Below, piece by piece: positions 1,655 to 46,813 of a stretch of DNA of 64,000 nucleotides. Both the position numbers and the translations under genes were made by a program. Location: assembly GCF_030684315.1 (NCBI RefSeq), contig NC_081391.1, positions 13,555,342 to 13,619,341 on the forward strand. The letters are read 5' to 3'. The notes below the pieces were generated by a model. It was not told where the DNA came from and made no database searches. It was given only the letters and a program-made list of their open reading frames with translations. Each line of letters starts with the position of its first letter. Position 1 is the stretch's first letter. This DNA is from Stegostoma tigrinum. Taxonomy: Eukaryota.

Positions 1655-1840
1655 AGGTCAAAGATCATTCAGCAATTCCATCATCGACCAGTTGTCAACC
1701 GTGATTCGTTTCTGGATCCAGTTCCCATCCTGCACTGATTGGACGTGGCAACTGATCAATTGATTAACAAGAGTGATTGGCCATCACTGATGATGTCATT
1801 TCCTGCTTCATAAAAAGAGGGTCAGCCCCTGGGGTATAAA
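1655..1840 (+). promoter_or_regulatory. Proximal promoter of ferritin copy A
   Basis: DR1-like AGGTCAAAGATCA 1655-1667, two ATTGG (inverted CCAAT), ATCAATTGAT, TGATGTCA, TATAAA 1835-1840. The block is conserved upstream of seven copies. Confidence 0.75.
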
Positions 1841-1927
1841 TAGAGTCCCACGGGAATGATGTTGATTGTTCTTCCTAATTTTGTTATTTTGGTGGTGAGG
1901 AGAATAAAAGAAATTTATTGTCACAAG

Positions 1928-4900
1928 ATGGCCTCCCAGATCAGTCAGAACTATCACCAGGATTGTGAAGCTGCTGTCAACAAGCAGATTAATGTGGAGC
2001 TCACTGCCTCCTATCTCTATCAGTCTTTGGTGAGTGCTGTCTCTCGGGGTTAAACATATAAATCTGTTCTGTTGAAGTAAATTCTTTGCCTGGCCTCTAG
2101 TGAAGCTGACAATCTAGTAGATTGAGGTTTTGTGGCTCCTACCTAAATATCAGTTCAGGATAGAGGTGGTGTTACTATCACGATGGTGTAGGATACTGAT
2201 GTATGTTAACTCAGGTCCCAGTTGGCCTTCAGTGGTATCTGGAGGGTAAAAGCCTCTTGCTTTTGTTTTCTTTCTGACACAAGTTTCCTGACTTCATTTG
2301 CCTGATCTCTGTGGTGGTCCTAAACAAACATGCTGATTTTTTTTAACACTGACAATAACAATAACTTCCCTGTTGCAGTGGCCCTTGTTAGTCTGAACAA
2401 ACCTGAAGCTAGTCTGTGACTAGCATCTGTTTTAAGTAGATCTCCTTCATTGAGGCTGACTTGGCTTTACTTGTATTTATTGAAGATGTGGGTGTGGCCT
2501 ATCCCGTCCCTACTGAGAGTTGATCTGCTGTGTGTGAGAAATGTTGGATCCCCACTCTGCCCCTTCTCCACCCCACCCCATGCTGGGGCTGCTGGAATGT
2601 GCTGAGGCTATTAGCCCAGTGACAGTGAAGGAATGGAGGTTGTTCCCATATCATTTAGCTTGACCTAAAACAAAATGTCCCCTCTATCCCAGTGGTGATG
2701 TGCTTGTGCCCTTCCAAGGAGTAGACTGTGCTTGGAAGGTATGTGTTGAAGTAACCTTGGTGAGTGCTGCAGGGGACCTGGTAGGTAATGGACTCTGAAA
2801 GGAGGTGGTGAATGCAGTCCCCATGAAGTGGGCTGCTCTGTCCTGGATGGTGTCTGCTTCTTGCATGTTGCAGGTCCCCTTCTCCAGACACATGGAGAAT
2901 ATTCATCTCTCTCTGGGCTTGTGCCTGTTGTGAGGAAGTTGTCTTGTAATGAGGACTAAGTCCCTATAAGCCTCACTTGGGAGGTGGGACAGCTTTATTG
3001 GTGATCCAGTGGTTGGGGTTTAATCACTGTGTCCCAACTCTGTTGGCACATGCTTCCCAAGGATAAAATCCCGACTATCTTCTGCCATGACGTGTAACTA
3101 CCCACTTAAACCAGAGATTTTTGCTTGCCTGACTGTGGTTTTTGGATTTGTGGATTAAAGTAACTTTTCAGGAGTCCTTCCCCAGAATGTAACTCTTAGC
3201 TGATGCTTCCAATAGTGACGATTAGCTCTTAAACCCTTACATCGAATTGTGAACATGACAGTTTAGATATGAGTCACATGGGCTGAAAGCCGACAGGATT
3301 TTTTGCCTGTTTGGGTTAAGTCAGGGCAAGTGCTTTTCCAGGTTACTGTTTTCACTAGTGACATTATCTACAGGCCACTGATATTTGACATTTGATCATT
3401 TGTTTCAGTCATGTGACTTGGTGCAAGTTTCTGACAGCCTGAGTTTGCACTATTTTTAGGCAGAGCAATAACCCACTGCTGCAACGATCCAAAGGCTGTT
3501 ACTGGGCAGGCTTTCCTTGGCATTATCTTAGTGCTAAACATCATACTGAAGATAGCGTACCCGTGTAGAGTTAATGTGTACACTTATGTCCAAATCTCAT
3601 TGATCCTGGGTTTGTAGAAAACATTCTCCCTACTATTCATTGACTAGAACAAGGTTCAACATCTTTTTTGAAAGTTTACCTGAAAGGCAAAACACAGTGC
3701 CTTGTGGCTCCTCCATCCTGTGTACATCCTGTACGCCAGCTCCTGGCACTTCCTGAAACCCTGTTCAACCAGTAACTTCATCCAATTCTGTTGGAGATTA
3801 ATGAATAGAAGCATGAATTCAGCTCTGTCTCTCCACAAAGGCTGTGCCAGGCACTCCTGAGCTAATCACCAGTAGATTCAAACCAAAATAAAACAGTATT
3901 TTTGGTTCCAGGAGGAAGCTGGACTGTTGTGATTTTGCCCAGTTGCTGGTGAATTGAACAACACTGGGTTCACAATCTGTTCAGTGTCTGACACATGAGC
4001 ATGCCTTCTGTCAGTTTGGTTTGAGTGCTCAAGTAGTCTTGTAGTTGAGAACTGCAATGGGGAGTGAGCCAGTGATGTCGAATGTAACTTGAACTTGTTC
4101 TTCCAGATGTCCTACTTTGCCCAAGACGATGTTGCCCTCCCCCATTTCTCCCAGTTCTTCAAAGATCAGTTCCAGGAGAAGCGGGAACATGCAGAAAAGC
4201 TGCTGAAATTCCAGAATCAGCGTGGCGGCCGAGTCCTCCTCCAGGATGTGAAGGTTGGGGTTGGGTGGTGGGGGAGTGCAGGGTGGAATGGCTGCTCTTG
4301 CGGTGTCATCTCCAGTGACAAGATTTTCAGATCCTGAGCGAGTGTGGAAAGTTCTTTTGCTTGGCTTCCCTGTTTGCTCTCCTCCATCTCCAGTGTTTCA
4401 GCATTTATACAAGCCTGACTTCCATCAAACAACCACCTCAGCCTCACCTGCTCAAAGGACAAGGAAAACCCCAGCCTGTCCAATCTCTCTCCTCACAATG
4501 GATTTTCTGTCTCGGGGAAACAACCTGGGGACCCTCACCAGCACCCCCTGCAGTGCTATCCTGTCCTTCTGACTAGCGAGGCCAAAGATAGAATGCAGCA
4601 GAGGCCGGAAGAACAATTTTCATAAAATGTGTTCAAAGGACTTGTCCCTGTGCTGTTCCTCACAACCCTGCCCCAAACTAACACATGTTACTTGGCCTAT
4701 GTCCCCTTTCACACACAGTTTGCCTTGTGTGAGCATTGAGGGATCGATGATCCTGTGTTTATTGTAAGCACATTACTGCCCCCGACAATGAATTCAAGTA
4801 ATGATGGTTCTGACCATGCCGCTCGGGCATGTATGAGGCCACAAGCACAAGTGAGACTTGAACATCAGCCTTGTCAACCGGAGCTTGGGACACTACCGCT

Positions 4901-6136
4901 ACTTCCCCCACAGCCCTTGGGATTCACTCATGAATATCCTTTTTAAGACTCCAGCAGATGGACACTGGTGCAAATGACTAATCTGGTACATATTTATTCC
5001 CTGTGGTACAAGGATATGTTCCTGAACTTCCGGCTTCAGGTCAAGGATAAATGGGGCAAGGTGAAAGGAGTCACCAAGTAGCTAATGTTTTCTTTATCTG
5101 GACTTCAGGGATGGCACAGTGGCTCAGTGGTTGGCACTGTTGACTCAGTGCCAGGGGTACCAGTTTGGTTCTGGCCCGTGACGAGAGTTTAAACGTTATC
5201 CCAAAGCATAGCATCCCCACACAGTAGAAAAGAAGATTGGCAACTTGAAATGCAGGTTACACGAACAGGGTGGGAATGGGACCAGATGGGATGCTCTTCA
5301 GCAGTTATGGTCTCAGTGGGGTGAATGGCCTGCTCCCATGCTGCAGGGATTCTGTTTCTGAAGCTTACCTGTCCTTCTCTCCATCCATAGAAGCCAGAGA
5401 GGATTGACTGGGGTAACAGCCTGCAGGCAATTCAGGTTGCCCTGAATCTGGAAAAGAATGTGAACCAGAGTTTGCTGGATCTACACCAACTCGCCACAGC
5501 CCAGACTGACCCTCATGTCAGCTTCACCTCCTCATTCACATCACTGCTAGACCCTCAAGGTAACGTTTCATTGGTTGGTCTGTGTGGATTGGAAATTCAC
5601 TGAAGTAACACTTTCCATCCATTACTTTCCTGAACTATTGTAACATTGATCACTTGGGATCATACTGATTACAATGAGGTATAAGGGGAATTTGATCTAT
5701 AATCTAGTGGAAGTGCTGAAATGACGTTGGCCACTGAGTTCTTCATTAGTATCATTGCAGTGGAATGATCATTGTCCATCACAATCCAACTCAGCTCCAT
5801 TTCACAAACAGCAAGATGGAGCAGCTGACATGTTGTCCTCACTGGCACAAATTCTCCAGGTGTTAGCTCGCTTTTCAGGGCTGTCCAGAGCTAGTCATGG
5901 CTAAGTCTGTCTTGCAGTGGGAATTCTGAAATTGTCGTGGATAGTATAAATGTACCAAGTGTCATATTCCTCTGTTGCAGCTGTGTGACTTCCTGGAGAC
6001 TCACTATTTGGATGAGGAGGTGGAGATCATCAAGCAACTTGGGGACTACATCACCAACCTGAAGCGCCTGGGAGCCCCTGAGAATGGGATGGGAGAGTAC
6101 CTGTTTGACAGGCTCTCCCTGGAGGACAGCAGTTAG
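1928..6136 (+). CDS. Ferritin subunit, L/M-chain-like, copy A (176 aa)
   Basis: Exons 1928-2029, 4107-4253, 5391-5516, 5981-6136, with phase-0 GT-AG introns and the canonical vertebrate ferritin exon layout. Protein runs [18 protein letters not shown]...[11 protein letters not shown]. The ORF is intact but has several private substitutions. Confidence 0.9.
2690..2900 (-). mobile_element. Ancient LINE (L2/CR1-like ORF2 C-terminal) relic in intron 1, shared by the array units
   Basis: Minus-strand translation [12 protein letters not shown] resembles the LINE ORF2 C-terminal motif (KLDxIQxxAARxI). It recurs near 18900, 25740, 43480 and 50100. Confidence 0.5.
5107..5350 (+). mobile_element. tRNA-derived SINE in intron 2 (orthologous copy in every unit)
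   Basis: gggatggcacagtggctcagtggttggcac A-box-like head followed by a degenerate B-box. Same position near 15040, 21470, 28505, 37210, 45785, 52888 and 61400. Confidence 0.65.
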
Positions 6137-11558: not shown

Positions 11559-14500
11559 ATGGCCTCCCAGATCAGTCAGAACTATCACCAGGATTGTGAA
11601 GCTGCTGTCAACAAGCAGGTTAATGTGGAGCTCACTGCCTCCTATCTCTATCAGTCTTTGGTGAGTTTTGTCTTGATGGAGTTGAAATTAAATCTATTCT
11701 GCAAAAATGAGCTGATCCTCTTGTTTCTAATTAACTTCATAGTCTTGTAGATTTGAGGAGTTTAAGTTTGCACCTTGAAAAATCATTTTGGGATAAATGT
11801 AATGCCCTTTGGTGACAATGGATTTTGATATTGATGTGCAGTATCTAATTCACCAGCTGGGATTGAGTGATAGATGGAGGGCAAATTGTTCTGTCAATTA
11901 TTTTACAATTTACTGCCAGGTCTCTGCCTGGTGGTAACTGTCGTTTTCCTCCCCAGAATTGACCAAACTTTACTAAAATTAGATGTAATGGTGTTGGGAG
12001 TTGTAGGCACCCCTTGGCTAGTCATCCTGTAACATTTTAATTTACCTTGATCACACTTAATTTGTGCTCTGATCCTAAATACACATGACAGTTTCCATTC
12101 TGTGATGGAGAATGATGGCAGTGACTGGCTTCTCTGAGCATATGCACTTGTAACTTGCATTGAGGAGGCCTCAGATGTGGACTAGTTGGCTTTCTGCATT
12201 CTCAGTTCATGAATGGACTGTTAGTGGCCAGGAAGTCACTTGTTGTCCATTCCTCCAATAGATCAATACCCTCCTGTGAGTGCATGCACAGGGTGTCTGG
12301 AATAACCTGAGGTCTTCACTTCACCAAAAAAGGTGAAGAATTGGAGTTTCAAATTCCCACGGTATGGGAAATAGTGCCTTTCTCCAGGGAGCACTGTGCC
12401 TATGGCCTCTCAAAATGGCAGGCTATAATGGTTTGTAAATGTTGAAGCAGCTTTTGAAGGCTGCTAGATACCTGGTAGATAGTGGACACTGGGAGTGCAT
12501 TCACTCACTCCCTTCAATGAGGTGGGCTGCTCTGTCCTGCATAGTGTCTACTTTGTGCATGTTGCAGCTCCACTTCTTGGGAAAAAGGGAGAATATTCAT
12601 CCCTCCATGGGGCTTATGTCTGAGAAGCATTCTCTTCCCACTCTGAGGATGAAATCCCTGTACCCTTCCCTTTAGCAGGTGGGAACAGCTATCACCAATA
12701 AGCCTGTTGGGTCTTAACTGTTAGTGGTGTCCCATATCAATTGGGCAGCATGTGCCCAAACAACCTACTATTGTATATCTGTGAGATGCAGCTACCCGAG
12801 AAAAGCCAGAGAAATTTACATGACTGTTTTTTGACAAAAGAAACTTCTCAGCCTGATCAGTTGGAACTAGATAACCTGCTCTAACAAGGTGTAGAGCTGG
12901 ATGAACACAGCAGGCCAAGCACCATCAGGGGGAGCAGGAAGGCTGATGTTTTGGGCCTGGACCCTTGAGAAATGGGGAGGGGAAGGGGTCCCTGAAATAG
13001 GAAGGGGTGGGGAGGTGAATGGATGAGGGATAAAGAAACAGGTGGTGAGGAGACTCCAGTCTGAGGTAAGGATGGAGCCAATCAAGTCAAGTGAGTTGAG
13101 TAGGCCTGTCCGTGGGGATGGGATTTGAGGTGGCGGGGGTCGGCGGGAGGTGGGGTGGTGTGGGGAAGTAGGTGGGAGGAAGGACGGACCAGTCGGGGAG
13201 GTGGGAACTAGCTGAGCTGTGATTGGGGGAAGGGAGATCTTTCAGCTTAAGTCCTCACTGATACCATTGGGCTGCAGGGTTCCCAAGCAGAATACAAGGT
13301 GCTGTTCCTGCAACCTTTGGGTGGCATTGGAGGCCCAGAATGAACATCAACTGTCCCCTCCTGCCCCTCTGAAGGGGAAGTAGTTTGTGACTGGGAGGTG
13401 CAGCTGCTGGTCACGAGCCCAGCATAGGCACTCCACAAAGTGGTGTCAAGCCTCTGCTCGGATTTCCTGATGTAGAGGAGGCCACATTAGGAGCAGTGGA
13501 TACAGCATACCTAACTGCAGGTGTGTAGGTCCACTTCATCTTGATGTGGAAGGTCTTGGGGCCTGGGATGAGGGGAGGTGTAGCACAATCTGTGTGGCAG
13601 GAAAAAAGCCCTGGCTAGTGGAATGTACAAGGGAATCAGTGGTCTCTCCAGAAGGCAGCTAAGGTTGGAGAGGTAAAACATGTCTTTGTCAGATTGTAGA
13701 TTGTATAAGTGCCAGAGGATGATGCACTGGGTCCTGGCATTGAGGTGGTACTGAAGGATGAGAGGATTCTGTTTTGGTTGTGTGAGGGATAAGATGCAAG
13801 ACCGGTTGTGTTTTTCTTCCACTAAAGGGAAGTTACGCTCCCTCGGAAAACGAGGACATCTGGGATGCCCAGGAGTAGAATGCCTCCCCTCGGGGCTGGA
13901 GGTGAAGGAATTGGATTAGGGGATGGCGTTTTCCTTCCACAGGAAGGTGGGTAAGGTGTATTCTAGGTAGCTGTAGGAGTCAGTAGGTTTGAAATATATC
14001 AAAGATTGATAGACAAACTTAAGGTTGAGGTAGAAGGCTCTAATGAATTAGAGGAACCGTTCAAGCTCCTTTGTGGGATGTAATGGAGGAAGATGTGGAG
14101 TTTATGGCCCATCTCCCTGTAGAAGGATTGTTCCACAAATCCTAACAGAAGCAGGCACAGCCTGGGCCCATGCACGTGCCTATGGCCACCCCCTTCCTCT
14201 GTAGGAGGTGGGAGGAATTGAAGGAGAAGTTAGGGGTGAGGATGAGTTGGCTAGTGGACAAGGTTGTTGGTGAATGGGGACCAGTCAGACCTGCAGGATG
14301 AGAGAAGCAGAGGGCCTTCGGCTATCTCCATGGGGAATGGATGAGGTTGGAGGCTGTGGGTGGGAGGTCATCTCCAGTGAAGTTGTAAATGGACTAGGAG
14401 ATGGTTTGGTGGTCAGGGGTGGAGTCATGATGAAGGGCGGGGTGGTAGGAGGTATCGGCTGCTCTTCCACACAAGTATATGTGGCACTCCAGCTCCTGGC

Positions 14501-16131
14501 ATTTCCTTAAACCCTGTTCAGTCACGAACTTCATCCAATTCTGATGGTGCTTAGAGTGGAAATGCTCTTCTCTCTACAGACAAGAACAGGCATGGTCAAT
14601 TCACAGGTTTTGGTCAAGGAATTTCAAGTTTGCCTGGTTACCAGGAGGAGGCGAGGGTTGTTTTTGATGATCCTTGAACTGGAGCTACTGGCTAATTGGA
14701 CAATGGTTCTCATCCACCTTGATGTATTTAAAAAAACATGTCATGTTTATTGACTTCTCAATTTGATTGAAGGCTAAACCAGTCATGTCTGGCACCAATT
14801 GCATAATGTTTAATGGTTGTAACTTGTTTTCTCCCAGATGTCCTACTTTGACCGGGATGATGTTGCCCTCCCCCATGTCTCCCAGTTCTTCCAAGATCAG
14901 TCCCAGGAGAAGCAGGAACATGCAGAGAAGCTGCTGAAATTCCAGAATCGGCGTGGAGGCAGAGTCCTCCTCCAGGATGTGAAGGCTGGTGTTGGGTTTT
15001 TGGGGTGGGGGGAGTTGGGTGGTAGAGAGTGGCTGCTCCTCAGGGATGGCACAGTGACTCGGTGTTTACCATGCCTGCCTCAGTGCCAGGGATCCAAGTT
15101 TGGTTCTTGGTTCTAGGCTCCAGTGAACGACTGGAGTTTACTTGTTCTTGCCATGTCCACATTGGCTTCACGGTTCAATGACGTGTGGGTTAGAAGGATT
15201 GCCATTGAAAATGCAGGGTTACAGGAATAAGGTGGGATTGTTCACAGAAGGGACTTGTAGCGACGAACGCAGTGGCCGTACCTGCTGATCGGGGATGAAT
15301 AAAACGATGTAGTGACCTTTGTTATTGTCACCATGTGTCAAATAGCCTGTTCCCATGCTGCAGAGATTCTGAAGCTTACCTGTCCTTCTCTCCATCCCCA
15401 GAAGCCAGAGAGGGCTGAGTGGGGTAACAGCCTGCAGGCAATGCAGGTTGCCCTGGATCTGGAGAAGAATGTGAACCAGAGTTTGCTGGATCTACACCAA
15501 CTCGCCACAGCCCAGACTGACCCTCATGTGAGCTTTCCCACCTCCTCGTTCTGATCACTGCTAGGCCCTCAGGGCAACACCTCATTGGTCTTTTGTAGAT
15601 TAAAATTCACTGGGATACTTTGATCACAATATCATATCTGAACAGTATGTTCATTTAATCAACATTAAAACAGCTCAGCAATGAGCTGAAATGGGAATTT
15701 GGATTCAGTACCACGAGTGATGTTGGCCACTGAATTCACTTTCAGGTCCACTTGCAGTAGAATGATCATTGTCTGTCACAGTTCAGCTCGGCTCCACTTC
15801 ACAAACAACAAGGTGCATCTGGAATGTTACTGTCCTCCCTGGCGCAACATCTAGATGTCAGTGGCTTTTCCAGCTGTCGAGAGCCAGTTATGGTGGGGTC
15901 TGTTTCGCAGTGGGAATTCTGAAAATTTCCTGGATCATGCAAATGTACCAAGTTGCCATAATTCCTCTGTTGCAGCTGTGTGACTTCCTGGAGACCCACT
16001 ATTTGGATGAGGAGGTGGAGATCATCAAGCAACTTGGGGACTACATCACCAACCTGAAGCGCCTGGGAGCCCCTGAGAATGGGATGGGAGAGTACCTGTT
16101 TGACAGGCTCTCCCTGGAGGACAGCAGTTAG
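11559..16131 (+). CDS. Ferritin subunit, L/M-chain-like, copy B (176 aa if the GC donor of intron 2 is used)
   Basis: Exons 11559-11660, 14838-14984, 15402-15527, 15976-16131. The intron 2 donor is AAG|GCTGGT, where other copies have GTTGG. The terminal poly(A) signal is AGTAAA at 16259-16264. Confidence 0.7.
12870..14460 (-). mobile_element. Penelope-like retroelement fragment (RT plus GIY-YIG endonuclease, decayed) in intron 1 of copy B
   Basis: Minus-strand remnants [15 protein letters not shown] (PLE RT motif QxxGxAMG), CGLLYI (YIG) and [17 protein letters not shown] (GIY-YIG C-terminus). It ends in the same inverted terminal arms as the mini-elements. Confidence 0.85.
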
Positions 16132-17720: not shown

Positions 17721-20700
17721 ATGAGTTCCCAGATCAGTCAGAACTGTCACCAGGATTGTGAAGCTGCTGTCAAAAGGCAGATTAATGTGGAGCTCACTGC
17801 CTCCGATCTCAATCACTCTTTGGTGAGTGCTGTCCCTGTGGGGTTAAAACTTGATCTATGTAGTTGAAGTAAATGTTTTCTCTTGAATTTAATTAACTGG
17901 ACCCTCTCTCTTTGTAGATTGAGTTTTGTAGTCCTTTCCTAAATATTAATTCAGGATAAGGGCAATGTTACTATACCAATGGGGTTTGATAATGATGTAC
18001 TCTGAAGCTGGGTCCCAGTTGGCCTTCAGAGATATGTGGAGGATGAAGTGTCCCTGGAGAAATTTGCCAGTTTGGTGTTTGAATTGGCAGTAGATGTCAT
18101 TCCCTCTAAGATTACCAAATGTTGGTAGGGTTACTTCAGAAAGGTATTATATTGATCAGACTGTGGGACTAGAATCACCCACTGGCTAGTTACCCTCTTT
18201 CTGACAGGTTTAAGTATCTGATTTTATATTTGCTTGCTTTTGTGGTGATACTTAAATATCAATTCTGATATTGACAATGATAATTCCCTATTGCAGTCTG
18301 CTGTGGCTAATCTGAGCAAACCTACTTGAGGTTAGGCTGTGAGTGACTGGTATCTGACTTTTTAAAGTAGATCTCAGCTGAGGCCTGCTTGGCATTTTGC
18401 ACTCCCATCATGAGATGGGTGTGGCCTATCCCTGAACCTGTAGAAAGTTGATCTGCTTTAGTGTGTGGCGTGTTGAAGCTTCTGCAAACCATGTTTGCCT
18501 CCTGCCCCCTCACCCACACCCTGCATCCCCTCTAGCTGCTGGAGTCTGAGATTCATGGTCCAGTCTCTATGCCATCCTGATAGGGAACAAACTGTCCCCT
18601 TTAGCCAGGTGGCAGTGAACCTGTAACTTTCCAATGGGTAGAATGTTTCAGACAGTAGGAACAGCAGATGCTGGAGAATCTGAGATAACAAGGTGTAGAG
18701 CTGAATGAACACAGCAGGCCAAGCAGCATCAGAGGAGCAGGAAGGCTGATGTCTTGGGGCATGACCCTTCTGAAGGTGGGCCTAGGCCCAAAACAGCAGC
18801 CTTCCTGCTCCTCTGCTTGGCCTGATGTGTTCATCCAGCTCTACATCATCGTATCTCAAGGGGTAGAATGTGTTTGGAAGGTGTGTGTTGAAGTAACCTT
18901 GGTGAGTGCTGCAGGGGACCTGGTAGATAATGGACCCTGAAAGGAGGTGGTGAATGCAGTCCCCATGAAGTGGGCTGCTCTGTCCTGGATGGTGTCTGCA
19001 TCTTGAATGTTGCAGCTCCACTTCCACAGACACATGGAGAATCTTCTTCACTCTCAGCTTTTGTCTGTTAGAAAGAAGATGTCTCATGACAGATGGATGA
19101 AGCCCGTATAAACTCCATTTGGGAGGTGGGTACAGCTTTCATTGGTGAGCCAGTTGACGGGTTTTAATTACTGACCAGGGTCCCATTTCCCTTGGGGAAC
19201 ACGTGTGCCAATTATAAAATCCTTCCTATTCTCTCCTGCCACAGCTTGTCCCTACCCCGTTAAACAGACAAGAAATTTTGTTTGACTGCTTCTACATGAA
19301 GACAATAACTTCCCACCAGGCTTCCTCGACAACAAAACTCTTAGCTCCTGTTTCAAATATCAGAAGAATAGCCCTTCATAAACCTCAAGGCATTGGATTG
19401 TGAATATCTCGGTTCGGAAGTGAGTCACATATGGGTGGACAAACAACAGAACGGTGCCAGCTGGGATAAGCCAAACTTTGTTGTCCAGCTTTGTGTTAAC
19501 TAGTGACGTTAGATCAGCCATTATCTGTAGATACAGGTCACATTGGTTCTTTCTCTCCAATATTTGACCTTCCCTCAGTTTGATTCAATTTGTTTTGTTC
19601 ATGTGACCCTTGTTCTCCCCCTTCTGGATGTGAGTGCACTAATTTTAGTGTGCTATAAACTAAACTGCAACAATCCAGAGGCAGTTACTGGGTAGGTTTT
19701 CCTTTGCACTATCTTGTTGTCGCTTTCTCTCATTCGCCTCTATTATATCTTGTAGTCATAAAATATACCGTACATTCAATCTCCCTGGTTTTGAGGCCAC
19801 AGAAACCTTGCTTCCTCCTGGTTATATTGTTACAGCAGTGTCTAACATGTATTTCCATGCCAGCCCCAAAGGAGCAATAGTGTTACAGCTCCCTACTCAA
19901 GTATAGCCTGCACTCCAGCTCCTGGTGCTTGTTTCAGCTGTTTGTTTGGCACTAATATTGTCCAATTCGAATGAAGGTTAGTGAGTGCAAACATGGCTGG
20001 ATACAAGAAGAGCTATAATGCTGTGCCAGGCAGCCTGAGCAATTTACTGTTTGTTTTAAGCCAAACTTTTGCCAGTTTCCAACAGGAAATTGGGATTGTT
20101 CTGTTTGATCCCAGTTGAAGGATCTGCTGGACAGCTGGACATCATTGGGTTCTCAAACATGTTCACATACCAGGCAGTTGGTTTGCTGCAGAAGGCTGAA
20201 CTAGAATTTGGAGTCAGTGCTGTGTTTAATGGGCTTTAACATGTTATCTCCCTTCCAGATGTCCTACTTTGACCGGGATGATGTGGCCCTCCCCCACTTC
20301 TCCAGGTTCTTCAAAGATCAGTCCCGGGAGAAGCAGGAACATGCAGAGAAGCTGCTGAAATTCCAGAATCAGCGTGGAGGCCGAGTCCTCCTCCAGGATG
20401 TGAAGGTTGGAGTTGTGTGGGAGGGTTGCAGCTGTGGAGGAGAGAATGGCAGCTCTTGTGGTGCTGCGTCCTGTTGGGATGTGAAAATCCTATTTTGGCC
20501 TGGCTTCCCTGTTTGATTTCTTTTGAAGGCAGTTTCTAAACAAGCCCTATTGTCCACCATGTCTATGCTGCCCACAAACATCAAACTACATTAACACAAT
20601 TTCCTGCACTTAGTCCACAGCCGACTATCTTCTGGCATGAAGAAGTTGTTGAGATTAGCCTTCAATGTTGCTGGAGTAACTGCCTCCACTGACCCCACAG

Positions 20701-22449
20701 GTAATGCATCCCATACCTCTCCCACCCTCGACTGGGTGGGTGGGTCCTCCAATCTCCTCAAACCTGTGCCATCTGGTCTTCATGTCTGCCATGGGGACTG
20801 TGTATTGTCCATCCTCCCTGATCTTCCACACTTCCATCAGATCACCATCCCAGGCTATCCAACCTCCCTCTCATCATTGTATTTTTGTTGTCTTTTTTTG
20901 CTTCCATCTTGGGCCAACATCCTGATGACCCTCACCTGTACCCCCTGCAGTGCCACCTTGTCCCTCTGATGGTGGTTCTGGTCACCACACTACATTCCAT
21001 CTTTGGTCTGGCCAATGCTGCCATGTTTGTGGCAAGACTCATCCTTTCTACTGAGCCCCAAATCATGGAGACCAGCATCATGTCAGCCCCTTCCCCACTC
21101 TGTCTACCTTTGCTGAACCTTGAGGGATGGACTTGGGCATTTGTTGCTTGTCCCTTTTACTGTAAGCACATTGCTCCCTTCAATGAATTAAATAGTAGTG
21201 ATGTCTGATCATCCTGCTCAGACATGGATGAAGCCACCAGCACAGGTGAGACATAGATGCCTGGCCTGCAAGGTGCAGATTGGTACTCTACCTCAAGAGC
21301 CCTTGAGACTAAGGTGTCAATGTCCTCATCTAAATGCCAAATGGGCACTGGTGCAAACAGTTGAACTTTGTGTGAAATAAATCCCTAGCCCACAATGACT
21401 TCATGCTTCAGATCAAGGATAAATGGAGCAAAGTGAAGTCACTTCACAAGTAATGAATGTGGGTTTTAGGGGTGGCACAGTTGCTCAGTGCCAGGGACAC
21501 AGGTTTAGCTCTGGCCTCTGATGACTGGTGATTACATGTTCAGGTTTCTTCCTACAGTCCAAATATGGGCAGGCTGGGTGAAGTAGCCATGGGGGAATTG
21601 CAGTGCAAATGGCTCAGGTAAATCTGAGATCTTCTTCAGAAGGTTGATTGCAGACTCAATGGGCTGAATGGCCTGCTCCCATGCTGCGGCGAGTCTCTGA
21701 TTCTGAAGCTTAACTGTTCCTGTTTCCATCCTCAGAAGCCTGAGAGGGATGAGTTGGGTAACAGTCTGCAGGCAATGCAGGTTGCCCTGGATGTGGAGAA
21801 GAATGTGAACCAGAGTTTGCTGGATCTACACCAACTCGCCACAGCCCAGACTGACCCTCATGCAAGCTTCACCTCTTCATTCTCATCACTGCCAGGCCTC
21901 CTCAACTTCATTGGTTGGTCTTTGTGGAGTGGAAATTCACAGACGTAACTTTGTCCAGATGCTACATTGTACCTTTGTCATCATAATTATGATGACAATG
22001 TTAAACTGCTCAACACCGAACTGAAATAGGAATTTGGATTACAGTCTGGTGGGAATGCTGATGTGATTTTTGGCTGCTGAATTGGGGATTGTTGCACTAT
22101 ACAATACAACTTGGAGCTCTTTAAGAAGGTGAGATGAAGCAGCTGAAATGTGCTCACTGGCACAAATTCTCCACCTGTTAGCTAGATTTTCAGGGCTGTC
22201 TAGAGCTCGTTATGGCTCAGTCTTTTTCAGTAGGAATTGTGAAGTTGTCTTGGATAGTATAAATGTACCAAGTGTCATATTCCTCTGTTGCAGCTGTGTG
22301 ACTTCCTGGAGACTCACTATTTGGATGAGGAGGTGGAGATCATCAAGCAACTCGGGGACTACATCACCAACCTGAAGCGCCTGGGAGCCCCTGAGAATGG
22401 GATGGGAGAGTACCTGTTTGACAGGCTCTCCCTGGAGGACAGCAGTTAG
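17721..22449 (+). pseudogene. Ferritin copy C, probable pseudogene (promoter deleted)
   Basis: Exons 17721-17822, 20259-20405, 21736-21861, 22294-22449. No DR1/CCAAT/TATA block upstream. Exon 1 encodes [34 protein letters not shown] (Y to C, D and N changes). W to L in exon 3, and the intron 3 donor is CAT|GCAAGC. Confidence 0.8.
18647..18856. mobile_element. Palindromic Penelope-derived mini-element in intron 1 of copy C
   Basis: Same inverted arms, flanked by caatgggtagaatgt and caaggggtagaatgt (about 15-bp duplication). Absent from the other units. Confidence 0.8.
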
Positions 22450-24656: not shown

Positions 24657-27600
24657 ATGGCCTCCCAGATCAGTCAGAACTATCACCAGGATTGTGAAGC
24701 TGCTGTCAACAAGCAGATTAATGTGGAGCTCACTGCCTCCTATCTCTATCAGTCTTTGGTGAGTGCTGTCCCTGTGGGGTTGGAGTTACTTCTGTTATGA
24801 AGTGAACTGTTTTTTTTTAAAACAAACTAGATTAATACTCTTGTATAATAAAATGTGAGGCTGGATGAACACAGCAGGCCAAGCAGCATCTCAGGAGCAC
24901 ACGTTTAGCTTTTGTGCTCCTGAGATGCTGCTTGGCCTGCTGTGTTCATCCAGCCTCACATTTCATTATCTTGGAATTCTCCAGCATCTGCAGTTCCCAT
25001 TATCTTTAACACTCTTGTAGACTTGTTTGTTTTTTTTTTGTATCTCTCTTAGCTATTTCTTGATTCAGCGTAAATGTGGTGACAATGGGATATGATACTG
25101 ATATGCAGCAACTGAGGCCCCAGTTGTCTCAATGATATATGGAGGGTGAAGCATCTTGTGATTTATCTTAAAATTCCTTTTTGGGCTGTGATTGCCTATA
25201 ACTGGCTGTGGCTCTCCATAATTTTCTAAACTACTGTCAAGCTTTGATCCAGATAACCATTGGCTAACTACCTTTTTAAATCTGCCTTGATGTATCTGCT
25301 TTAATTTTGTGCATGTAAATAAACAAACATACTGGTTTTGGTATTTACAATAAGGTGTTGTAGTAATTTGACAAATCAGATTTTTTTAAGCTGAACTGAA
25401 GTCCTTGAGGTAAGACAAGCTGCTCCCTGCTTAAGTAGGTCTCCGATATTATTTTGGCTTTCTGTGCTCTATATCATGAAGTGGGTTTGATCCATCACTT
25501 CACAACCTATAGAAAGTTGACTTGTTATAGGTGCCTGCCCCCCCCGACCCCCCCGCCCCCAAAAGGGGGCTGCTGGAACATGCTGAGGCTATTGACCCAG
25601 AGGTGAAGAAATAAATGTTCTTCCTTTACCATTTAACCAGATAAAGAAACAAACTGGCTCCTCCCACCATGTGGTGGTGCCCCTGTGCCCTTCCCAGGAG
25701 TAGAATGTGTTCAGAAGGTGTTGAGGTCCCCTTGGTGAGTGCTGCAGGGGACCTGGTAGATAATGGACCCTGAAAGGAGGTGGTGAATGCAGTCCCCACG
25801 AAGTGGGCTGCTCTGTCCTGGATGGTGTCTGCTTCTTGCACGTTGCAGCTCCACTTTTCTCCAGACACATGGAGAATATTCATCACTCTCTGGGCTTGTG
25901 CCTATTGGAAGGAAGTCCTATCTAGGGACATGAGGATAAAGTCCCTATAACTACCTTTTTGGGAGGTGGGAATAGCTTTAACTAGTGAACCAATTGTTGG
26001 GTTTTAGTCACTGACCACTGTCCCAACTCAATAGGGAATCTTGTGTGCTGATAATAAAATCCCCACTATTCTTCACCTTCTACAACTTAACTACCCAATT
26101 AAACCACTTTTTTAACTTTTAGTTTGTATTTGAGGATTAAACTAACTTCTCACCAGGATTCTACCAAAGAACAACTTCTTCTTTTGATGTCAATAGACTG
26201 TTCCTAATCAGCAGTAACTTGTTGGATTGTGAATCTCAGTTGAAAAGTGAGTGAAATGAGTGGGGAAAACAATAGTTTAGCCTCTTGGAATAAGCTAAAT
26301 TGAGCTCTCCAGCTTTGAACAAGTCAATAATCTATAGGTCACACAGTCCTGCAGATACCATTAGGTCTCCTGAACATTTGATCTTGTTTCAGTTGTGAAT
26401 TTTAATGCTTTGCTTTGCAAGCTTCTGGCAACCTGAGTGCATGGCATAAACAAATGTGATAAACTATTGCTGCAACAAGCCAAAGGCTGTCACTGGGCAG
26501 GCTCTCCTTTAGCACCAAGATTCTCCTAATCGCCCTCATTCTCCTGCATACTGCAAACAGCATCTCTTGTAGAGCTGCTTTATGTAAAAAAAAATACAGT
26601 ACATCTGATCCAATTGGTTGCAGAAGACCTGTACCTACCAGCTATATTAATGTCCAGCATCTGCATGTTACTCTAGCACCAGGGGAGACATGTAATGACT
26701 GGAAGTTGCCTGACCCTGTGCACATCCTGCATTCCAGCTCCTGGCACTTGTTTAAACCCTATTCAGTTACCACTTCCATCCATTTCTGGAGGCTAGATGG
26801 TAGAAATGTGCTTTCAGCTTTTCTCTCCAGGCTGTGCCAGACACCCCCCCCCAAACAATTCAGCAGGGTTTACAAACCAAAACACTGAATTTGCATCTTA
26901 CGTGGAAGAAGCTGGGGTTGTTTGGTTTCCTCCAATTAAAGGAGCTGCTGGCTAATTTTGCAACACCATTAGTGAACATTGTAAGGTGTCAACAATTTTC
27001 AGCTGATTGAATCATTAGTTTGCTTTAGACTAAACCAGTCCTCCAGTTCTGAGCATGAGAAATGGGGTCAATGATGTGTTTAATGGGCTTTAACATGTTA
27101 TCTCCCTTCTAGATGTCCTACTTTGACCGGGATGATGTTGCCCTCACCCATGTCTCCCGGTTCTTCAAAGATCAGTCCCAGGAGAAGCAGGAACATGCAG
27201 AGAAGCTGCTGAAATTCCAGAATCAGCGTGGAGGCAGAGTCCTCCTCCAGGATGTGAAGGTTGGAGTTTGGGAGGGGGGCATGGTGTGGTGTGCAGGAAT
27301 GGTAGCTCATGGTGTTTTCTGTTAGTAGTGACAAGATTTTCATGTGGTAAAGGATGTGAAGGTTGGAGTTGGAGAAGGCAGGCAGTGGGGAGGAGATGTG
27401 AGAAATGGCTGCTTATGGTGTGGTTTCATGTCCTGAAAGAAAGTGAAAACTGTTTTGTTTGGCTCCCCTCCTTTTGATGAAAAGGAAAGAAATCCTAGAA
27501 ACACGCCTCTTGGCTCCCCTCCACCTGCTGCTTCTCCACCCCCCCCCCAACCCCGCCCCCCCACACCACCCCACCCCATGCTGACCCGATAAACACCAAA

Positions 27601-29516
27601 CCACATTAATCCCATTTACTGCACTTGGTCTACAGCCCCCATGGCATTGGTAGTTGTCTAGAAGCTGCTTAAATATTGCAGCAGGAGATGCCTCCCCCAC
27701 TGCCCCACCCCCCCCATATTATTTTTCCACTACCCTCTGGGCAAAGGATTCCTCTAACCTGCTGACTCCTCACATCAGTGCCCTCTGGTCTTAATGTCTC
27801 TTTCTCCCCACCCCCTCATAGCAGACACTCCCCATCTACTATCAAGACTCCACACTAATCAAATGCCATCACATAAACATCTCAACTGACTTCACTCTGA
27901 GGATTGGAGTGAGAAATCTAATCTCTCCTTTTAATGGATTTTTCAGTCTTGGGGCAACATCCTGGTGACCCTTCCAGTGCCATTGTGGCTCTGGTCACCA
28001 CACAGTATTCCACCTTTGCATGGCCAATGCTGCAAAGTTTGTGACAAGACTGGAGTACCTGTACTGCGCCCCAAGAAATGGGGAAGGGCATTGTGGAAGC
28101 CAACTTCCCCACCTGTCTACACTTATGGATCCTTGAAATATCTCTAGTCTTGTTCTTTTGGTTCCTTTTATTGTCAACATATTGCTGTCCCTTCAATGAA
28201 TTAAATAGTAGTGATGCTTTTGATCATTCAGGTCAGTCCGAGATGAAGCCATAAGCACAAGTGGGACTTCAACCTGGGCCTATGCTCCAAACCTAGGGAC
28301 AGTACCACTGCTTAACGAGCCCTGGGATTAAGTTGTGAATATCTTCCTTGGGATGCCATCAGATGGGCACTGACAATTCTGTGCAAACATAACTCTTATC
28401 CCCACTATGACCTGGTTGTGAATTGACTTTCCTTTCGGAAGAAGCAAATAGGGCTAGGTGAAAGCAATTCCTTAAATAACTGATCTGTTCTTCCTAAGGA
28501 CTTCAGGGATGGCGGTGGTTAGCACAACTGCATCAGTGCTTGGGGCACAAGCTTAATTCTGGAGTTGACATGTTCACCACATCTCTACATAGGCTTCCTC
28601 CCACAGTCCAAAGATGTGCAGGGTAGGATAGGGCATGAAAAATGCAGGATTACATGGCTGGGGCTAGGACCAGGTTGGATGCTCTTCAGATGGTCATGAG
28701 TGGGCAGAATGGCCTGATGCATGCTGCAGGGATGTTGTTTCTGAGGCTTACCTGTCCTTCTTTCCATCCTCAGAAGCCAGAGAGGGATGAGTGGGCAACA
28801 GTCTGCAGGCGCTGCAGGTTGCCCTGGATCTGGAGAAGAATGTGAACCAGAGTTTGCTGGATCTACACCAACTCTCCACGGCCCAGACTGACCCTCATGT
28901 AAGCTTCACCACTTCATTCTCATCACTGCGAGACCCTCAGGGTAACACTTCATTGGTTGGTCTGTGTGGATTGGAAATTCACAGGTGTGCACTGATCACT
29001 TTGGGTCCATGCTGCTGAGCAGTTGTTACATGGTGATCAGTAATGAAGTGAAATGGGAGTTTGGAAGGCAATCCATTGGGAGTGATGAAGTGATATTGGC
29101 CATTGAATTCCCATTCTCACTTGGGAGCATTACAGTGGAATGATCATTGTCCATCACCATCCAACTCAGCTCCACTTCACAAGCAGCAAGATGGAGCAGC
29201 TGAAATCCTATTGTCATCACCGACACAGATTTTCCAGGTGTTAGCTAAATTTTCAGGGCTGTCTGGAACTAGTATGGTAAAGCCTGTTTTTTTCAGTGGG
29301 AATTCTGAAATTGTCTTGGATAGTGTTAATGCACCCAGTTGTCATATTCCTCTGTTGCAGCTGTGTGACTTCCTGGAGACTCACTATTTGGATGAGGAGG
29401 TGGAGATCATCAAGCAACTCGGGGACTACATCACCAACCTGAAGCGCCTGGGAGCCCCTGAGAATGGGATGGGAGAGTACCTGTTTGACAGGCTCTCCCT
29501 GGAGGACAGCAGTTAG
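24657..29516 (+). pseudogene. Ferritin copy D with 1-nt frameshift in exon 3 (pseudogene or assembly error)
   Basis: Exons 24657-24758, 27113-27259, 28774-28898 (125 nt instead of 126), 29361-29516. gagtgggcaac replaces gagtggggtaac, giving [23 protein letters not shown] with a stop at 28845. Confidence 0.75.
24846..25005. mobile_element. Palindromic Penelope-derived mini-element in intron 1 of copy D
   Basis: Near-perfect inverted arms with the loop deleted, flanked by ttaatactcttgta and ttaacactcttgta (14 bp). Confidence 0.85.
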
Positions 29517-33053: not shown

Positions 33054-36000
33054 ATGGCCTCTCAGATTAGTCAGAACTATCACCAGGATTGTGAAGCTGC
33101 TGTCAACAAGCAGATTAATGTGGAGCTCACTGCCTCCTATCTCTATCAGTCTTTGGTGAGTGGAGTCTCTGTTGGGTGAAACATACTTCTGTTCTGTTGA
33201 AGTGAACTCTTCCCCTTGGATGTAATTAAGTTGTCTATCTTATAGACTGAGTTTTGTGGCTCCTACCCCTTTCTCAATGCAGGATGAGTGTGATGTTATT
33301 ATAACAATAGTTTGGTGCCTAATGTTACTGTAACTTGGGTCCCAGTTGGTTGTCAGTGAGATGTGGAGTGTTCTTGTAGTTACTTGCCTGTCCCATGATG
33401 GTGCTGTGACTGGTGGTAATTATCGCTTCCTGTGACTGTTTGAAACTTGAGGGAACTAATTTAAAAATGAATTGGGACTCACCATTGTGGGAATGGAAGC
33501 ACCATCAGCTAGTCATTGCTTTTCTTTTCCCTCTTGTATCCTTGTTTCTATTTGAATCTTGTGGGGATCTGAAGTAAACCTGCCAATTGATACTGAGAAT
33601 CTTGGTTTCCTATTGCAATCAGCTTAGAATAGGCTTGTTCTAGCCCTGCAGAGCGGGGCTGAGAGGTGGCAAATGGAGTTTAATGCAGTCAAGTGTGAGC
33701 TGATGCACTGTGTTAGGAGTAACCGGAAGGCAAAGTACAGGGCTGATGGTAAGATTCTTGGTAGTGTAGATGAGCAGAGAGATCTGTGTCGATAGGTAGA
33801 CACGGATTGTTCAAAGTTGCCACCCAGGTTGACAGGGCAATTAAGGCAGTGTTTTGTCTTTTATTAAGAGGATTGAGTTCTGGAACCAAGTGGTTATGGT
33901 GAAGCTATCCAAAAACTCTGGTGCATACAGTTCTGGTCACTGCATTATAAGGATGTGAAGCTTTGGAAAGGGTGTAGAGGAGATCTGCTAGGATGTTTCC
34001 TGGTATGGAAGGAACATCTTATGAGGAAAGGCTGAGGGACTTGAGGCTCTCTTCATTAGAGAGAAGAAGGTTGAGAGGTGACTTAATTGAAACATATAAA
34101 ATAATCAGAGGGCTAGTTCGGGTGGATAGGGAGAGCCTTTTTCCTAGATGGTGATGGTGAGCATGAGGTGGGGTAGCTTTAAATTGAGGGCTGATAAATA
34201 TAGGACAGATGTCAGAGGTAGTTTCTTTACTCAGTCAGGGAATGCAATGCTTTGCCTGTGACAGTAGTAGATTTGCCCACTTTAGGTACACTTAAGTCAT
34301 CATTGGATAAGCAAATGGGCGTACATGGAATAGTGTAGGTTAGATGGGCTTGAGATCAGTATGACAAGTCGGCACAACATCAAGGGCTGAAGGGCCTGCA
34401 CTTGGCTGTTATGTTCTATGCTCAGATTAAACTGGGTGAGGTTGTGACTCTTATCTGATTCAGCAGATCTCCATTTGAAATCTACCTTGCTTTTCTTCAT
34501 ACTCATGAGGTGGGTGTGGGCTGTCTGTATGTCAAGTGTTGGAGCTTTTCAAAGGCACAGCACTGCCATGGGGCTGAGAATGTACTGACCCAGTGACTCT
34601 GGTAAAAAGTTTGTGCCCGTTGTATTTGGCCTGATTCTAAACTAACTGGACCCTCTTTCCCCAGGTGGGGTGCTTGTGCCCTTCCAAGGGGTAGAAGGTG
34701 TTTACGTAACCTTGGTGTTTGTTGCAGGGTGCTCTCTGGGCTTGTCCCTGTCAGCAGGAAGTCCCCCTCCTGATGAGGATCAAGCCCCTGTCAGCCCCAG
34801 TTTGGGAGGGGGAACAGCTTTCATTGAGCCAGCAGTTGGGTTTTAATCACTGACCCATTGTCCCAACACACCTTGTAAGCATGTGCCAGGAATGAAATCC
34901 TTACTATTCTACATCTTCTAACTGCACATTTAAATCGCAAAGATAAATTGTGCTTGTGTTTGCATTTGAGAATTGAAGCAACTTTTTTCAGCAGGATTTG
35001 TAAGAATGTGCTTGTTACTGGCTGCTTCCAATAGCAGACCTGCTAAACCTCAATACATTGAATTGTGAACATCCTGGTTTAGAAATCTACAGGACTTTGC
35101 CTGTTGGATTAAGTCAACAGTGGTTTTTCCAGGTTAATGAGGGATCTTGTCTGGAGAGTAGTTGATCTGCGGATCACTGTCATATTTGTCATGTGATCAG
35201 TTTGTTTTGTCAGTCTTTGTTTCATGTGTAATGGTACAAGTTGCTAGCAGTCTGAGTCAGTGCAGCTGTTTTAGATGCAACAATAAACTGTTGCAGTAAC
35301 AACCCAAAGGCTGTCCTTAGGCAGGCTTTCCTTGGCAGATTCTTGGAGCTAACATCCTTCATTCATCTCCTCCTCTCCCCCCCCCCCCCAGCCACCCCAA
35401 TACTGCAGTTCTTGTCAAACTAATACATACAGTGCATCCAATTGCATTGATCCTGACTCAGCAGAAAATGTGCTTCTTCCAAGCTGTTAATTGCAGTGTC
35501 TAGGATCTGTTTTCTGGCCTTTGCCAAAGCAGCAATACAGTGCCCTGCAGCTGTTCTATTGGTGTACATCCTGCACTCCAGCCCCTGGCATTTCTTGAAA
35601 CCCGATTCAATCAAAGATTTATCCCATTTCTGGTGGAGGTTAATCAGTAAAAACATCAATTCACACTTGTTCTCACCAAATGCTGTGCCAGACCCTCCTG
35701 GGCAATTTGCCTGGAGTTTCAAACCAAAATAAAACACATGGTATTTACAGCTTACTGGAGGAAGCTGGGATTGTTTTGATTTTTCCAATTCAACAGCAAC
35801 TGTTCAAAACTGGGTTCTGAATTGTTAATGCATCAGGTACTTAACAGCTTATTGTCAGTTTGATTTTGAGAATGCTCAACTAGCCCTGTAGTTCTGAACT
35901 GAAATTGGCCCATGACTTGTTAATGGACTTTACCTTGTTCTCCCTTCCAGATGTCCTACTTTGACCGGGACGATGTTGCCCTTCCCCATTTTTCCCAGTT

Positions 36001-38210
36001 CTTCAAACATCAGTCTCAGGAGAAGCGGGAACATGCAGAGAAGCTGCTGAAATTCCAGAATCAGCGTGGAGGCGGAGTCTTCCTCCAGGATGTGAAGGTT
36101 GGAGTTGGGTGGGGTGGGGAATGGGATGGTAATGGCTGCTCTTGTGGTGTGGTTTCAAGTCAGTGACAAGGTTTTCATTTGAGTCAAAACTTTGTTCAGC
36201 CTGTTTGATCTCCTTTTTGAAGCCAGTGTGGAAAGAAGCCCTTTGGCCCACCATGTCTATGCTGACCCCACAAACACTAACAACATTAATCCCACTTACC
36301 TGCCCTTGGTCCACAGGCCACTGTCCTGGCACTAAGTATTTGTCCAGCTGGACCCTAAACTGATCTGGAGTAGCTGTCTCCACCACCATCCAACCCTTTA
36401 TGTGGTTCATCTCATATTTCAAACAGCCCCTCAGAGGGGTGGGGGTGGGGTGAAGTTTCCTCCAATCCCCTCTAACCTGCTTACTCCTCAAACCTGGTTT
36501 CTCTCCTGTCTTGGTGTCTGCCATGGGAAGACATTCCATCAACTGGCCACTCTCTATTCTTCAATTACATCAGGTCACTCCCTCAGCTGTTCCTGCTCCA
36601 CAGAAAATCCCAGCCTATCTAACCTCCAATCAATGGATCTTGGGCAACAGCCTGGGGAACCTCACCAGCTTCCCCCTGCAGTGCCATCCTGTCCAGGTGA
36701 CTGGTGAGGCCAAAGAGGAATAATGTGGTGACCAGAAAAACAAACTGAGGAGACTGGTCCCCTTCCTGTTCCACCACACCCAACTAATAGAGGTTGCTTG
36801 CCCTCTGTCACTGTTACACCCTGTTGACCTTGTCTGAACTTTGAGGGATCTATGGTTGTGGGCCTTTCTTAACTGTTAGCAGCACAACACACTTTGCAAA
36901 CACCTCGCTGTCCCTTTGATGAATTAAATAGCCGTGATGTTTCTGATCATCCTGCTCGGGCATGTATGAAGCCACCAGCACAAGTGGTACTTGAACCTTG
37001 GCCTTGTCAGCCAGAGACAGGGGCACTACCACTGTACCATGACAGCATTTAGGATTCACTCGTGAATATCCTCGCAATTCCATCAGATGGACCCTGATGC
37101 AAATCTTGTCATTATCCCCCACAATGACCTGTTATTCACCTTCCTCCTTCAGATCAAGGACCGACAGGCAAGGTGAAAGCAATTCTGAAGGAACTGTGCT
37201 CCAGGGCTGCCTCAGGGGCTAGCAGTGTTCTCAGTGCCAGGGACACAGGTTTTGATCTGGCCTCTGGTGAGGGACTGGTGTTTACATGTCCTCCCCATGT
37301 CTGCGTTGGTGTCCTCATAGTATAAGAGGATTGGCCATCTGAAATGCAGGGTTACAGGAATAGGGTGGGAGAAGGACGAGTTGGGATCCTCTTCAGAGCA
37401 GTTACAGACTGATCCACGTTGTAGAGATTCTGAAGCTAAACTGTCCTTCTTTGCCTCCTCCCAGAAGCCAGAGAGGGATGAGTGGGGTAACAGCCTGCAG
37501 GCAATGCAGGTTGCCCTGGATCTGGAGAAGAATGTGAACCAGAGTTTGCTGGATCTACACCAAGTCGCCACTGCCCAGGCTGACCCTCATGTAAGCTTCA
37601 CCTCCTCATTGACTTCACTGCTAGGCCCTCAGGGCAACACCTTCATTGGTTGGTCTTTTGTGGATTAGAAATTCAGTTAGACTTTGTTTTTGTGCAGATG
37701 ACATGGATCACTTCAGATCCATAGTGATTACAAAATCATTGCTGAGCAGTTGACTCCAAGTATGTATTTTAACTTGTAAACCTGTGGGGAGGACTGAGGC
37801 GATATTGGTGACTGAATTCTCATTCAGGGCCACTGCAGTGGAATGACTTTTATCCATCACAAGTCAACTCTGCTCCAGTAAATAAACAGCAAGATGAAGC
37901 AGCTAAAAAGCAGTTGTCCTCATTGCACAATTTCTCCAGGCGTTGGCTCTAGTCATCCCTGACAATCTCCCTCCATATGCATGTTTTTCAGTGGGGATTG
38001 TGAAGTTGTCTTGGATAGTGTTAATGTACCAAGTGTCATATTCCTCTGTTGCAGCTGTGTGACTTCCTGGAGACCCACTATTTGGATGAGGAGGTGAGGA
38101 TCATCAAGCAACTTGGGGACTACATCACCAACCTGAAGCGCCTGGGAGCCCCTGAGAATGGGATGGGAGAGTACCTGTTTGACAGGCTCTCCCTGGAGGA
38201 CAGCAGTTAG
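33054..38210 (+). CDS. Ferritin subunit, L/M-chain-like, copy E (176 aa)
   Basis: Exons 33054-33155, 35951-36097, 37465-37590, 38055-38210, GT-AG introns, intact ORF ([22 protein letters not shown]). Confidence 0.9.
33646..34420 (+). mobile_element. CR1 LINE 3' fragment in intron 1 of copy E
   Basis: Highly similar to positions about 650-1470 (gagaggtggcaaatggagtttaatgcag...atgttctatg), with internal deletions. Confidence 0.9.
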
Positions 38211-46610: not shown

Positions 46611-46813
46611 GTCTTGGATAGTATAAATGTACCAAGTGTCATATTCCTCTGTTGCAGCTGTGTGACTTCCTGGAGACTCACTATTTGGATGAGGAGGTGG
46701 AGATCATCAAGCAACTCGGGGACTACATCACCAACCTGAAGCGCCTGGGAGCCCCTGAGAATGGGATGGGAGAGTACCTGTTTGACAGGCTCTCCCTGGA
46801 GGACAGCAGTTAG
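42660..46813 (+). CDS. Ferritin subunit, L/M-chain-like, chimeric copy A'/C (176 aa)
   Basis: Exons 42660-42761, 44513-44659, 46068-46193, 46658-46813, GT-AG introns, intact ORF, AATAAA at 46939. Confidence 0.92.

Follow-up and report, generated by a model that had tools for sequence, protein, structure and literature searches.

A tandem array of lysine-62 ferritin genes with a putatively lost ferroxidase centre in Stegostoma tigrinum

Organization of the ferritin array

The window, by which is meant the whole 64-kb stretch of DNA analysed, contains eight ferritin genes (A to H) of four exons each, placed head-to-tail on the plus strand. This organization matches the four exons and three introns reported for vertebrate ferritin genes (PMC4117605). 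The reading frame is open in seven of the eight copies, with copy D as the exception. The features are as follows.

1655..1842, plus strand: promoter block of copy A, with a DR1-like element at 1655, inverted CCAAT/Y-box-like motifs at 1736 and 1774, and a TATA box at 1835
1928..2029, plus strand: copy A exon 1, with the ATG, E27 and Y34; short 5' leader without an IRE
4107..4253, plus strand: copy A exon 2, with E61, K62 (codon AAG at 4179) and H65
5391..5516, plus strand: copy A exon 3, with E107; reads IDWG
5981..6136, plus strand: copy A exon 4, with the E141 codon at 6017 and the stop
11559..16131, plus strand: copy B; open frame, GC donor after exon 2, K62 at 14910
17721..22449, plus strand: copy C; open frame, Y34N and further exon-1 changes, K62 at 20331
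24657..29516, plus strand: copy D; frameshift from a 1-nt deletion in exon 3, K62 at 27185
33054..38210, plus strand: copy E; open frame, K62 at 36023
42660..46813, plus strand: copy F; open frame, 98% identical to protein P0012, K62 at 44585
49021..53901, plus strand: copy G; open frame, K62 at 51553
57238..62397, plus strand: copy H; open frame, K62 at 60200

The sequence-only reading had placed its subunit at 4107-6136. This span was found to hold exons 2 to 4 of copy A, the first gene of the array, on the plus strand, and exon 1 lies separately at 1928-2029. Copy C has a GC donor after exon 3, is without a TATA box and promoter block, and is probably decaying. No ferritin with an intact site (E62/Q141) was found within the 64-kb window. 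Among the matches listed, the closest named proteins were S. tigrinum ferritins annotated as 'heavy subunit-like' and 'middle subunit-like', at identities of at most 98%.

Site residues, motifs and fold

H-chain numbering was anchored on macaque FTH (P0288) and checked at all seven key positions. E27, E61, H65 and E107 were present in 8/8 copies, K62 and E141 in 8/8 each, and Y34 in 7/8, copy C having N at this position, all in agreement with the sequence-only reading. Codon 62 is AAG and codon 141 is GAG in every copy (8/8); AAG is one transition away from GAG. The complete H/M ferroxidase centre (E27, Y34, E62, H65, E107, Q141) is absent, K62 and E141 standing in all eight copies. The copies carry K62 with E107, the combination (usually with E141) by which L chains are recognized.

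The short motifs described earlier were largely recovered. EKREH or EKQEH surrounds position 62 in general, with EKWEH in copy H as the exception, and both LDEEV and GEYLFDRL were found in 8/8 copies. The C-terminal motif [12 protein letters not shown] was present in six copies, with the ADPH variant in copies E and H; DEWG was intact in only four, copy A, whose exons 2 to 4 the sequence-only reading had located, reading IDWG instead. The use of these motifs as a light-chain signature could not be upheld. DEWG occurs in 4/6 FTH1 and 4/10 M-type rows, the 12-residue motif in 7/11 rows of the intact-site ferritins of sharks (described below), and GEYLFDRL in 4/11 of the same rows. Since they are carried by the shark intact-site type, the C-terminal motifs do not track K62, and by their distribution they appear to mark ancestry or gene conversion rather than the dead site. 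The 12-residue motif and GEYLFDRL occur in tetrapod L as well as in the two array types of sharks, and were found in 0/19 M-type/FTH1 rows.

P0012 matched the Pfam Ferritin family (PF00210) at E=6.7e-36. An AlphaFold model of this protein, built from an alignment, had a pLDDT of 88.1 and a TM score of 0.94-0.95 to frog M ferritin; the model predicts a normal ferritin fold, with four bundled helices and an E helix. Residues H118, D131 and E134 of the three-fold channel are intact. The residue pattern is not attributed to chance because of the Pfam score and because K62 is common to four shark orders.

The full set of L-chain cavity glutamates (57, 60, 61 and 64) is said to nucleate the mineral. 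This set is not complete in the window copies, which have D/H57, Q60 (R in copy C), E61 and E64; in tetrapod L, E57 was found in 9/16 and E60 in 13/16. Nucleation of the L type is doubtful because D/H57 and Q60 replace cavity glutamates; positions 57 and 64 (after renumbering) are named as L nucleation glutamates in PMC4117605.

Distribution of K62 and E141

Residues were surveyed in 156 named proteins from three sequence searches, among the matches listed. E62/Q141 was found in 93 of these rows, K62/E141 in 46 and K62/Q141 in 9. E141 occurred alongside E62 in 0/94 rows and alongside K62 in 46 of the 156 named rows; since the rows are related, the association of K62 with E141 reflects about two events. 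Among the matches listed, the sharks with K62/E141 were Stegostoma, Chiloscyllium and Hemiscyllium, and those with K62/Q141 were Mustelus, Cetorhinus, Carcharodon and Heptranchias. K62 spans four shark orders, and a partial protein of the whale shark also has it. Two K62 shark proteins, P0125 and P0127, have H65R. Among the named rows aligned from the matches listed, K62 was not seen in rays, chimaera, coelacanth or ray-finned fish.

Main trees were built from an alignment of about 175 columns with 62 hand-chosen rows, comprising 2 window copies and 60 of the 156 named proteins. With the trait columns removed, the K62 sharks formed one clade (100/99), in which Heptranchias branched first and the E141-bearing carpet sharks were nested (97/86 and 100/98). 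When residues were mapped on the tree, K62 needed two changes and E141 two, and loss of E27 and of H65 took 4 and 6 changes, respectively. On these trees K62 is read as an old trait of sharks. E141 most likely followed at a later point, confined to carpet sharks and in parallel to tetrapod L. The earlier proposal of an evolutionary intermediate between M and L is not borne out, E141 being nested in carpet sharks and the remaining K62 sharks having Q141. Forcing the carpet-shark E141 rows beside L cost 21.4 log units, with a borderline AU p=0.054. A closer relationship of the carpet-shark E141 type to L than to the other K62 sharks was considered and is disfavoured, chiefly by the nesting in the K62 clade.

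The non-shark K62 rows among the matches listed (n=39) have E107 throughout, E141 in 37, E27 in 6 and H65 in 3; E27, E61 and H65 occur together in none of them (0/39). Xenopus P0249 (Xenopus tropicalis, light chain, oocyte isoform) retains both E27 and H65, and has K61. The alligator protein P0214, another of the six that keep E27, has an M-type first exon and is probably a chimeric model. The subunit had been described as an H/L hybrid, but it does not form a unique type, because retention of E27 or H65 is frequent in amphibian L chains and P0249 keeps both. The shark K62 subunit is the least eroded example among the rows compared rather than a separate class. As some non-shark K62 rows still retain E27 or H65, the loss of these residues is interpreted as later erosion, with K62 as the constant L feature.

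A second amplified shark type

Sharks also have an E62/Q141 intact-site type, which is 71-75% identical to the K62 type. Clusters of the intact type had 69, 127, 138 and 180 members and clusters of the K62 type had 11, 19, 43, 45 and 76; such sizes may pool species and are not copies per species. That the K62 type was the one amplified was consequently not confirmed, since clusters of the intact type equal or exceed those of the K62 type in size (69-180 members vs 11-76 for the larger K62 clusters). In 8 shark species the two types were found on contigs of identical length, which was taken as a proxy for the same chromosome; they thus appear to lie on one chromosome. E62K is also present in one intact-type member from Heptranchias (P0025). 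The stingray protein P0174 was considered as a ray counterpart of the K62 lineage and rejected, as it was placed in the intact-type clade instead.

Origin of K62

Besides the main trees, a tree without the shark intact type (51 rows), a tree of exons 2-4 (65 rows) and a quick tree were made; from the quick tree 17 of 120 rows were dropped (11 gappy, 6 doubtful models). FTH1, with the ray and chimaera rows included, was a separate clade (100/97), and the K62 genes fell outside it. The K62 clade was sister to the shark intact type both without the trait columns (93/83) and with them (95/82). This pairing was found in 284/300 bootstrap trees and K62 with L in 0/300. Copy F is 64.7% identical to tetrapod L vs 72.5% to the shark intact type, and the columns specifically in common with tetrapod L are only two (L37 and K62). 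A separate origin of shark K62 is somewhat more likely on this evidence. A single codon change, from GAG to AAG, would then have produced K62 in a cluster that is related to the L/M locus of tetrapods. E62K appears easily reached, because it is also found in Heptranchias P0025 and in a sponge ferritin.

It is possible, though less likely, that the subunit is a true L orthologue. K62 would then have arisen once, before the split of sharks and bony vertebrates, in a tandem cluster adjoining an M-type gene; sharks and tetrapods would have kept it, ray-finned fish would have lost it, and E141 would have been fixed later in parallel. The function would be the same as that proposed below for the preferred reading. 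The AU test does not reject K62 with L as one clade (p=0.414) or a grouping of L with the two shark types (p=0.415). In the quick tree K62 and reptile L came out together (SH 86), and in the tree of exons 2-4 L clustered with the K62 and intact shark types (98/72). Once the shark intact type was removed the base of the tree lost its resolution, and K62 with L appeared in 82/300 bootstrap trees. Gene conversion, seen among the exons of the window, could artificially draw the shark types together, and the 12-residue motif and GEYLFDRL, as noted above, link shark arrays to tetrapod L. L and M-type genes were found on contigs of identical length in 6 tetrapods, the smallest being a 187-kb contig of Nanorana, and a mixed L/M-type cluster may therefore be ancestral. 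Amphibian and reptile L chains carry the annotation 'oocyte isoform'. Against common origin, both careful full-length trees favour K62 with the shark intact type, the specifically shared columns are two, E62K needs a single transition, and none of the K62 rows among the matches listed came from rays, chimaera, coelacanth or ray-finned fish.

In its widest form, which is put forward only tentatively and is less likely than not, a ferroxidase-dead L chain would be as old as jawed vertebrates. Its starting point would have been a K62 subunit with hardly any erosion, encoded in a tandem cluster that was expressed in oocytes, and sharks would have amplified it with its active partner. If so, the teleost M chain would be a tandem paralogue and not an L orthologue, ray-finned fish would have lost L, and sharks would preserve the order of decay: K62 first, then E141, with loss of E27 and H65 last.

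Promoters and array dynamics

No IRE was found in the 64 kb, Rfam giving 0 matches at the gathering threshold, and none was present among four weak matches at 1400-2100, around the start of copy A. Four IRE-like pattern matches occur in the window, all on the minus strand, opposite to the genes. A TATA box lies 93-103 nt upstream of the ATG in 7/8 copies (not C), and upstream of it the same number share a conserved block with a core divergence of 0.06-0.07. The block contains a putative DR1-type element (with one mismatch in copy A), inverted CCAAT/Y-box-like motifs and an E-box. Motifs of these kinds are linked to oocyte or liver expression; the DR1 element would rather suit expression in liver or gut.

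Silent divergence was lowest in exons 1 and 4 (0.03-0.04), intermediate in exons 2 and 3 (0.10-0.13) and highest in intron 3 (0.19). The lower divergence of exons than of intron 3 indicates exon homogenisation. pN was below pS in all four exons, only narrowly in exon 1. Homogenised exons, together with a frameshift in one of eight copies and the missing promoter of another, would suit an array of mostly redundant, decaying duplicates in which K62 was spread passively by concerted evolution and has no specific role. This explanation is regarded as very improbable, because K62 is kept across four orders, pN is below pS, seven of eight frames are open and the promoter core is conserved.

Proposed function

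On balance, the array probably encodes a cytosolic subunit of 176 residues that has lost its ferroxidase centre and is the partner of the intact type in bulk iron storage, probably in oocytes. That the subunit is ferroxidase-deficient and L-like, as had been proposed, is a sound deduction from its residues, in that K62 would replace the bridging ligand as in L chains. In L chains a Lys62-Glu107 bridge is reported to take the place of the iron site (PMC11396501), and in human H chain the double mutant E62K+H65G is reported to have abolished activity (PMC6929972). The cited knock-out is a double change, whereas the shark subunit retains H65.

The Lys amine is expected to fill the di-iron site and to pair with E107 (and E141). 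The subunit would be unable to carry out fast Fe(II) oxidation, yet would build a stable cage. Its role would be like that of an L chain, namely co-assembly with intact-site subunits, which would carry out the oxidation. Many copies without an IRE may give a large, transcription-driven output independent of iron level, the purpose of which is most likely the stocking of oocytes with iron. Its residues would thus suit a subunit that stabilises the cage, oxidises iron slowly or not at all, and assembles together with the intact type. Ovary-specific expression, reported for a shark ferritin cluster (10.1101/2024.09.09.611499), is in keeping with a role in oocytes.

Alternatively, the site may be remodelled rather than dead, with the carpet-shark subunit keeping slow ferroxidase activity or single-metal binding and E141 acting as a new carboxylate. 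In keeping with this, E27, Y34, E61, H65 and E107 are all kept in 7/8 copies, two changes were made in the knock-out reported in PMC6929972, and exon 4 is matched best by engineered variants of frog M that carry Glu at this position and were solved with cobalt (3ka9). We consider it improbable. Most sampled non-carpet K62 sharks have Q141, and H65R in P0125 and P0127 suggests that constraint was already relaxed; moreover, E141 accompanies K62 in 37/39 tetrapod L rows, where the site is inactive.

Significance

The ferritins described from fish are H and M chains only, and both are active. Retention of K62 across four shark orders leaves two histories for the division of labour between H and L: it is older than bony vertebrates, or it evolved on two occasions through identical substitutions in an identical order. 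The sharks also offer natural single-step variants, K62/Q141 (Mustelus) and K62/E141 (carpet sharks) with E27 and H65 intact, in which K62 alone can be tested. The published expansion of shark ferritins would, judging from these residues, contain two functionally different subunit types. Amplification of shark ferritins is already known, and it is the division between dead-site and intact types, together with the history of K62 followed by E141, that seems not to have been described before. A term search of the main text of two papers on elasmobranch genomes (PMC10620051 and 10.1101/2025.06.08.657570) gave no mention of ferritin. In a literature search with subscription journals mostly outside its coverage, no description of a shark K62 ferritin lineage was found.

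Comparison with known ferritins

Large ferritin clusters are likewise reported from the Greenland shark and white shark. For the Greenland shark, ancient clusters labelled FTL (155) and FTH1 (179), common to the white shark, are described, with ovary-specific expression of the ferritin cluster not split by subunit type; the labels there are annotation gene symbols (10.1101/2024.09.09.611499). FTL in these arrays may or may not correspond to the K62 type. A second Greenland shark genome paper reportedly also described a ferritin expansion.

Germ-line FTHL17 of mammals is comparable as a dead-site, IRE-less analogue of unrelated lineage. Sponge ferritin HdF2, an atypical ferritin of an invertebrate, is reported to have E62K and to have lost its IRE (PMC8395497). 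It is likewise a dead-site, IRE-less analogue but of an unrelated lineage, and E27Q, E61S and H65S show that further residues were also lost.

The M chain of teleosts and frogs is the best solved-structure match to the K62 subunit, but it keeps E62/Q141 and is active; it is reported to be orthologous to L (PMC4117605). The nearest group by identity is the shark intact-site type (RefSeq 'heavy chain A/B-like' and 'higher subunit-like'; P0029, P0059, P0148, P0181). It too is amplified and has the C-terminal motifs in common with the K62 type, from which it differs in having E62/Q141 and a complete ferroxidase centre.

With tetrapod FTL, of which P0249 is an example, the shark subunit shares K62, E107, E141 and the four-helix ferritin fold, and with P0249 in particular also the retained E27, Y34 and H65. 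Unlike tetrapod L, it combines E27, E61 and H65, has Q60 and D/H57 in place of cavity glutamates, and is only 64% identical to P0249; its genes, in which no IRE was found, stand in tandem arrays.

Array duplication and repeats

A higher-order duplication of approximately 24.3 kb, with an identity of 96.7-97.8%, was located inside the window, in two segment pairs. Reverse transcriptase remnants of LINE type, presumably CR1-like, were found in some intergenic regions and also within some of the ferritin genes.

21655-39813 and 45989-64000, duplicated segment pair
16-6314 and 40761-46992, duplicated segment pair
1-1470, + strand, LINE-type remnant
about 9100-10490, - strand, LINE-type remnant
33646-34423, LINE-type remnant
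about 40800-42190, + strand, LINE-type remnant
57837-58605, LINE-type remnant

Copy F of the eight ferritin genes (A-H, 5' to 3') resembles copy A at its 5' end, and the sequence 3' of its exon 4 matches copy C.

Promoter block, splice donors and exon divergence

A promoter block was retained in seven of the eight copies and conserved between them. It comprises a DR1-type element (perfect in five copies, with one mismatch in the other two), inverted CCAAT/Y-box-like motifs, an E-box and a TATA element. Two introns carry a GC donor in place of GT.

1655-1842, + strand, promoter block of copy A
at 11276, 24379, 32779, 42387, 48743 and 56963, counterpart blocks of other copies
14985-14986, GC donor, copy B intron 2
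21862-21863, GC donor, copy C intron 3

In all copies the silent divergence of exons 1 and 4 was 0.03-0.04, compared with about 0.2-0.3 in the neighbouring introns, and it fell abruptly at the exon boundaries. This pattern suggests exon-limited gene conversion or else selection acting at the mRNA level.

Related ferritins

H65R (human H-chain numbering; P0125, P0127, P0134, P0142, P0145 and P0174) recurred in both shark ferritin types, K62 and intact-site, the two rays included, and is a second route, beside K62, to a damaged site. The organism labels of P0052, P0212 and P0232 look wrong, with a shark-like ferritin entered under Aeromonas and reptile-like light (L) chains under panda and nematode.

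The alligator gene model P0214 has an M-type (middle chain) first exon followed by L-type sequence, and L/M-type pairs such as P0153/P0067 and P0262/P0199 have contigs of equal length. Together these suggest that non-mammalian tetrapods carry their L and M-type genes next to each other in tandem, an arrangement that would complicate the published orthology of M with L.
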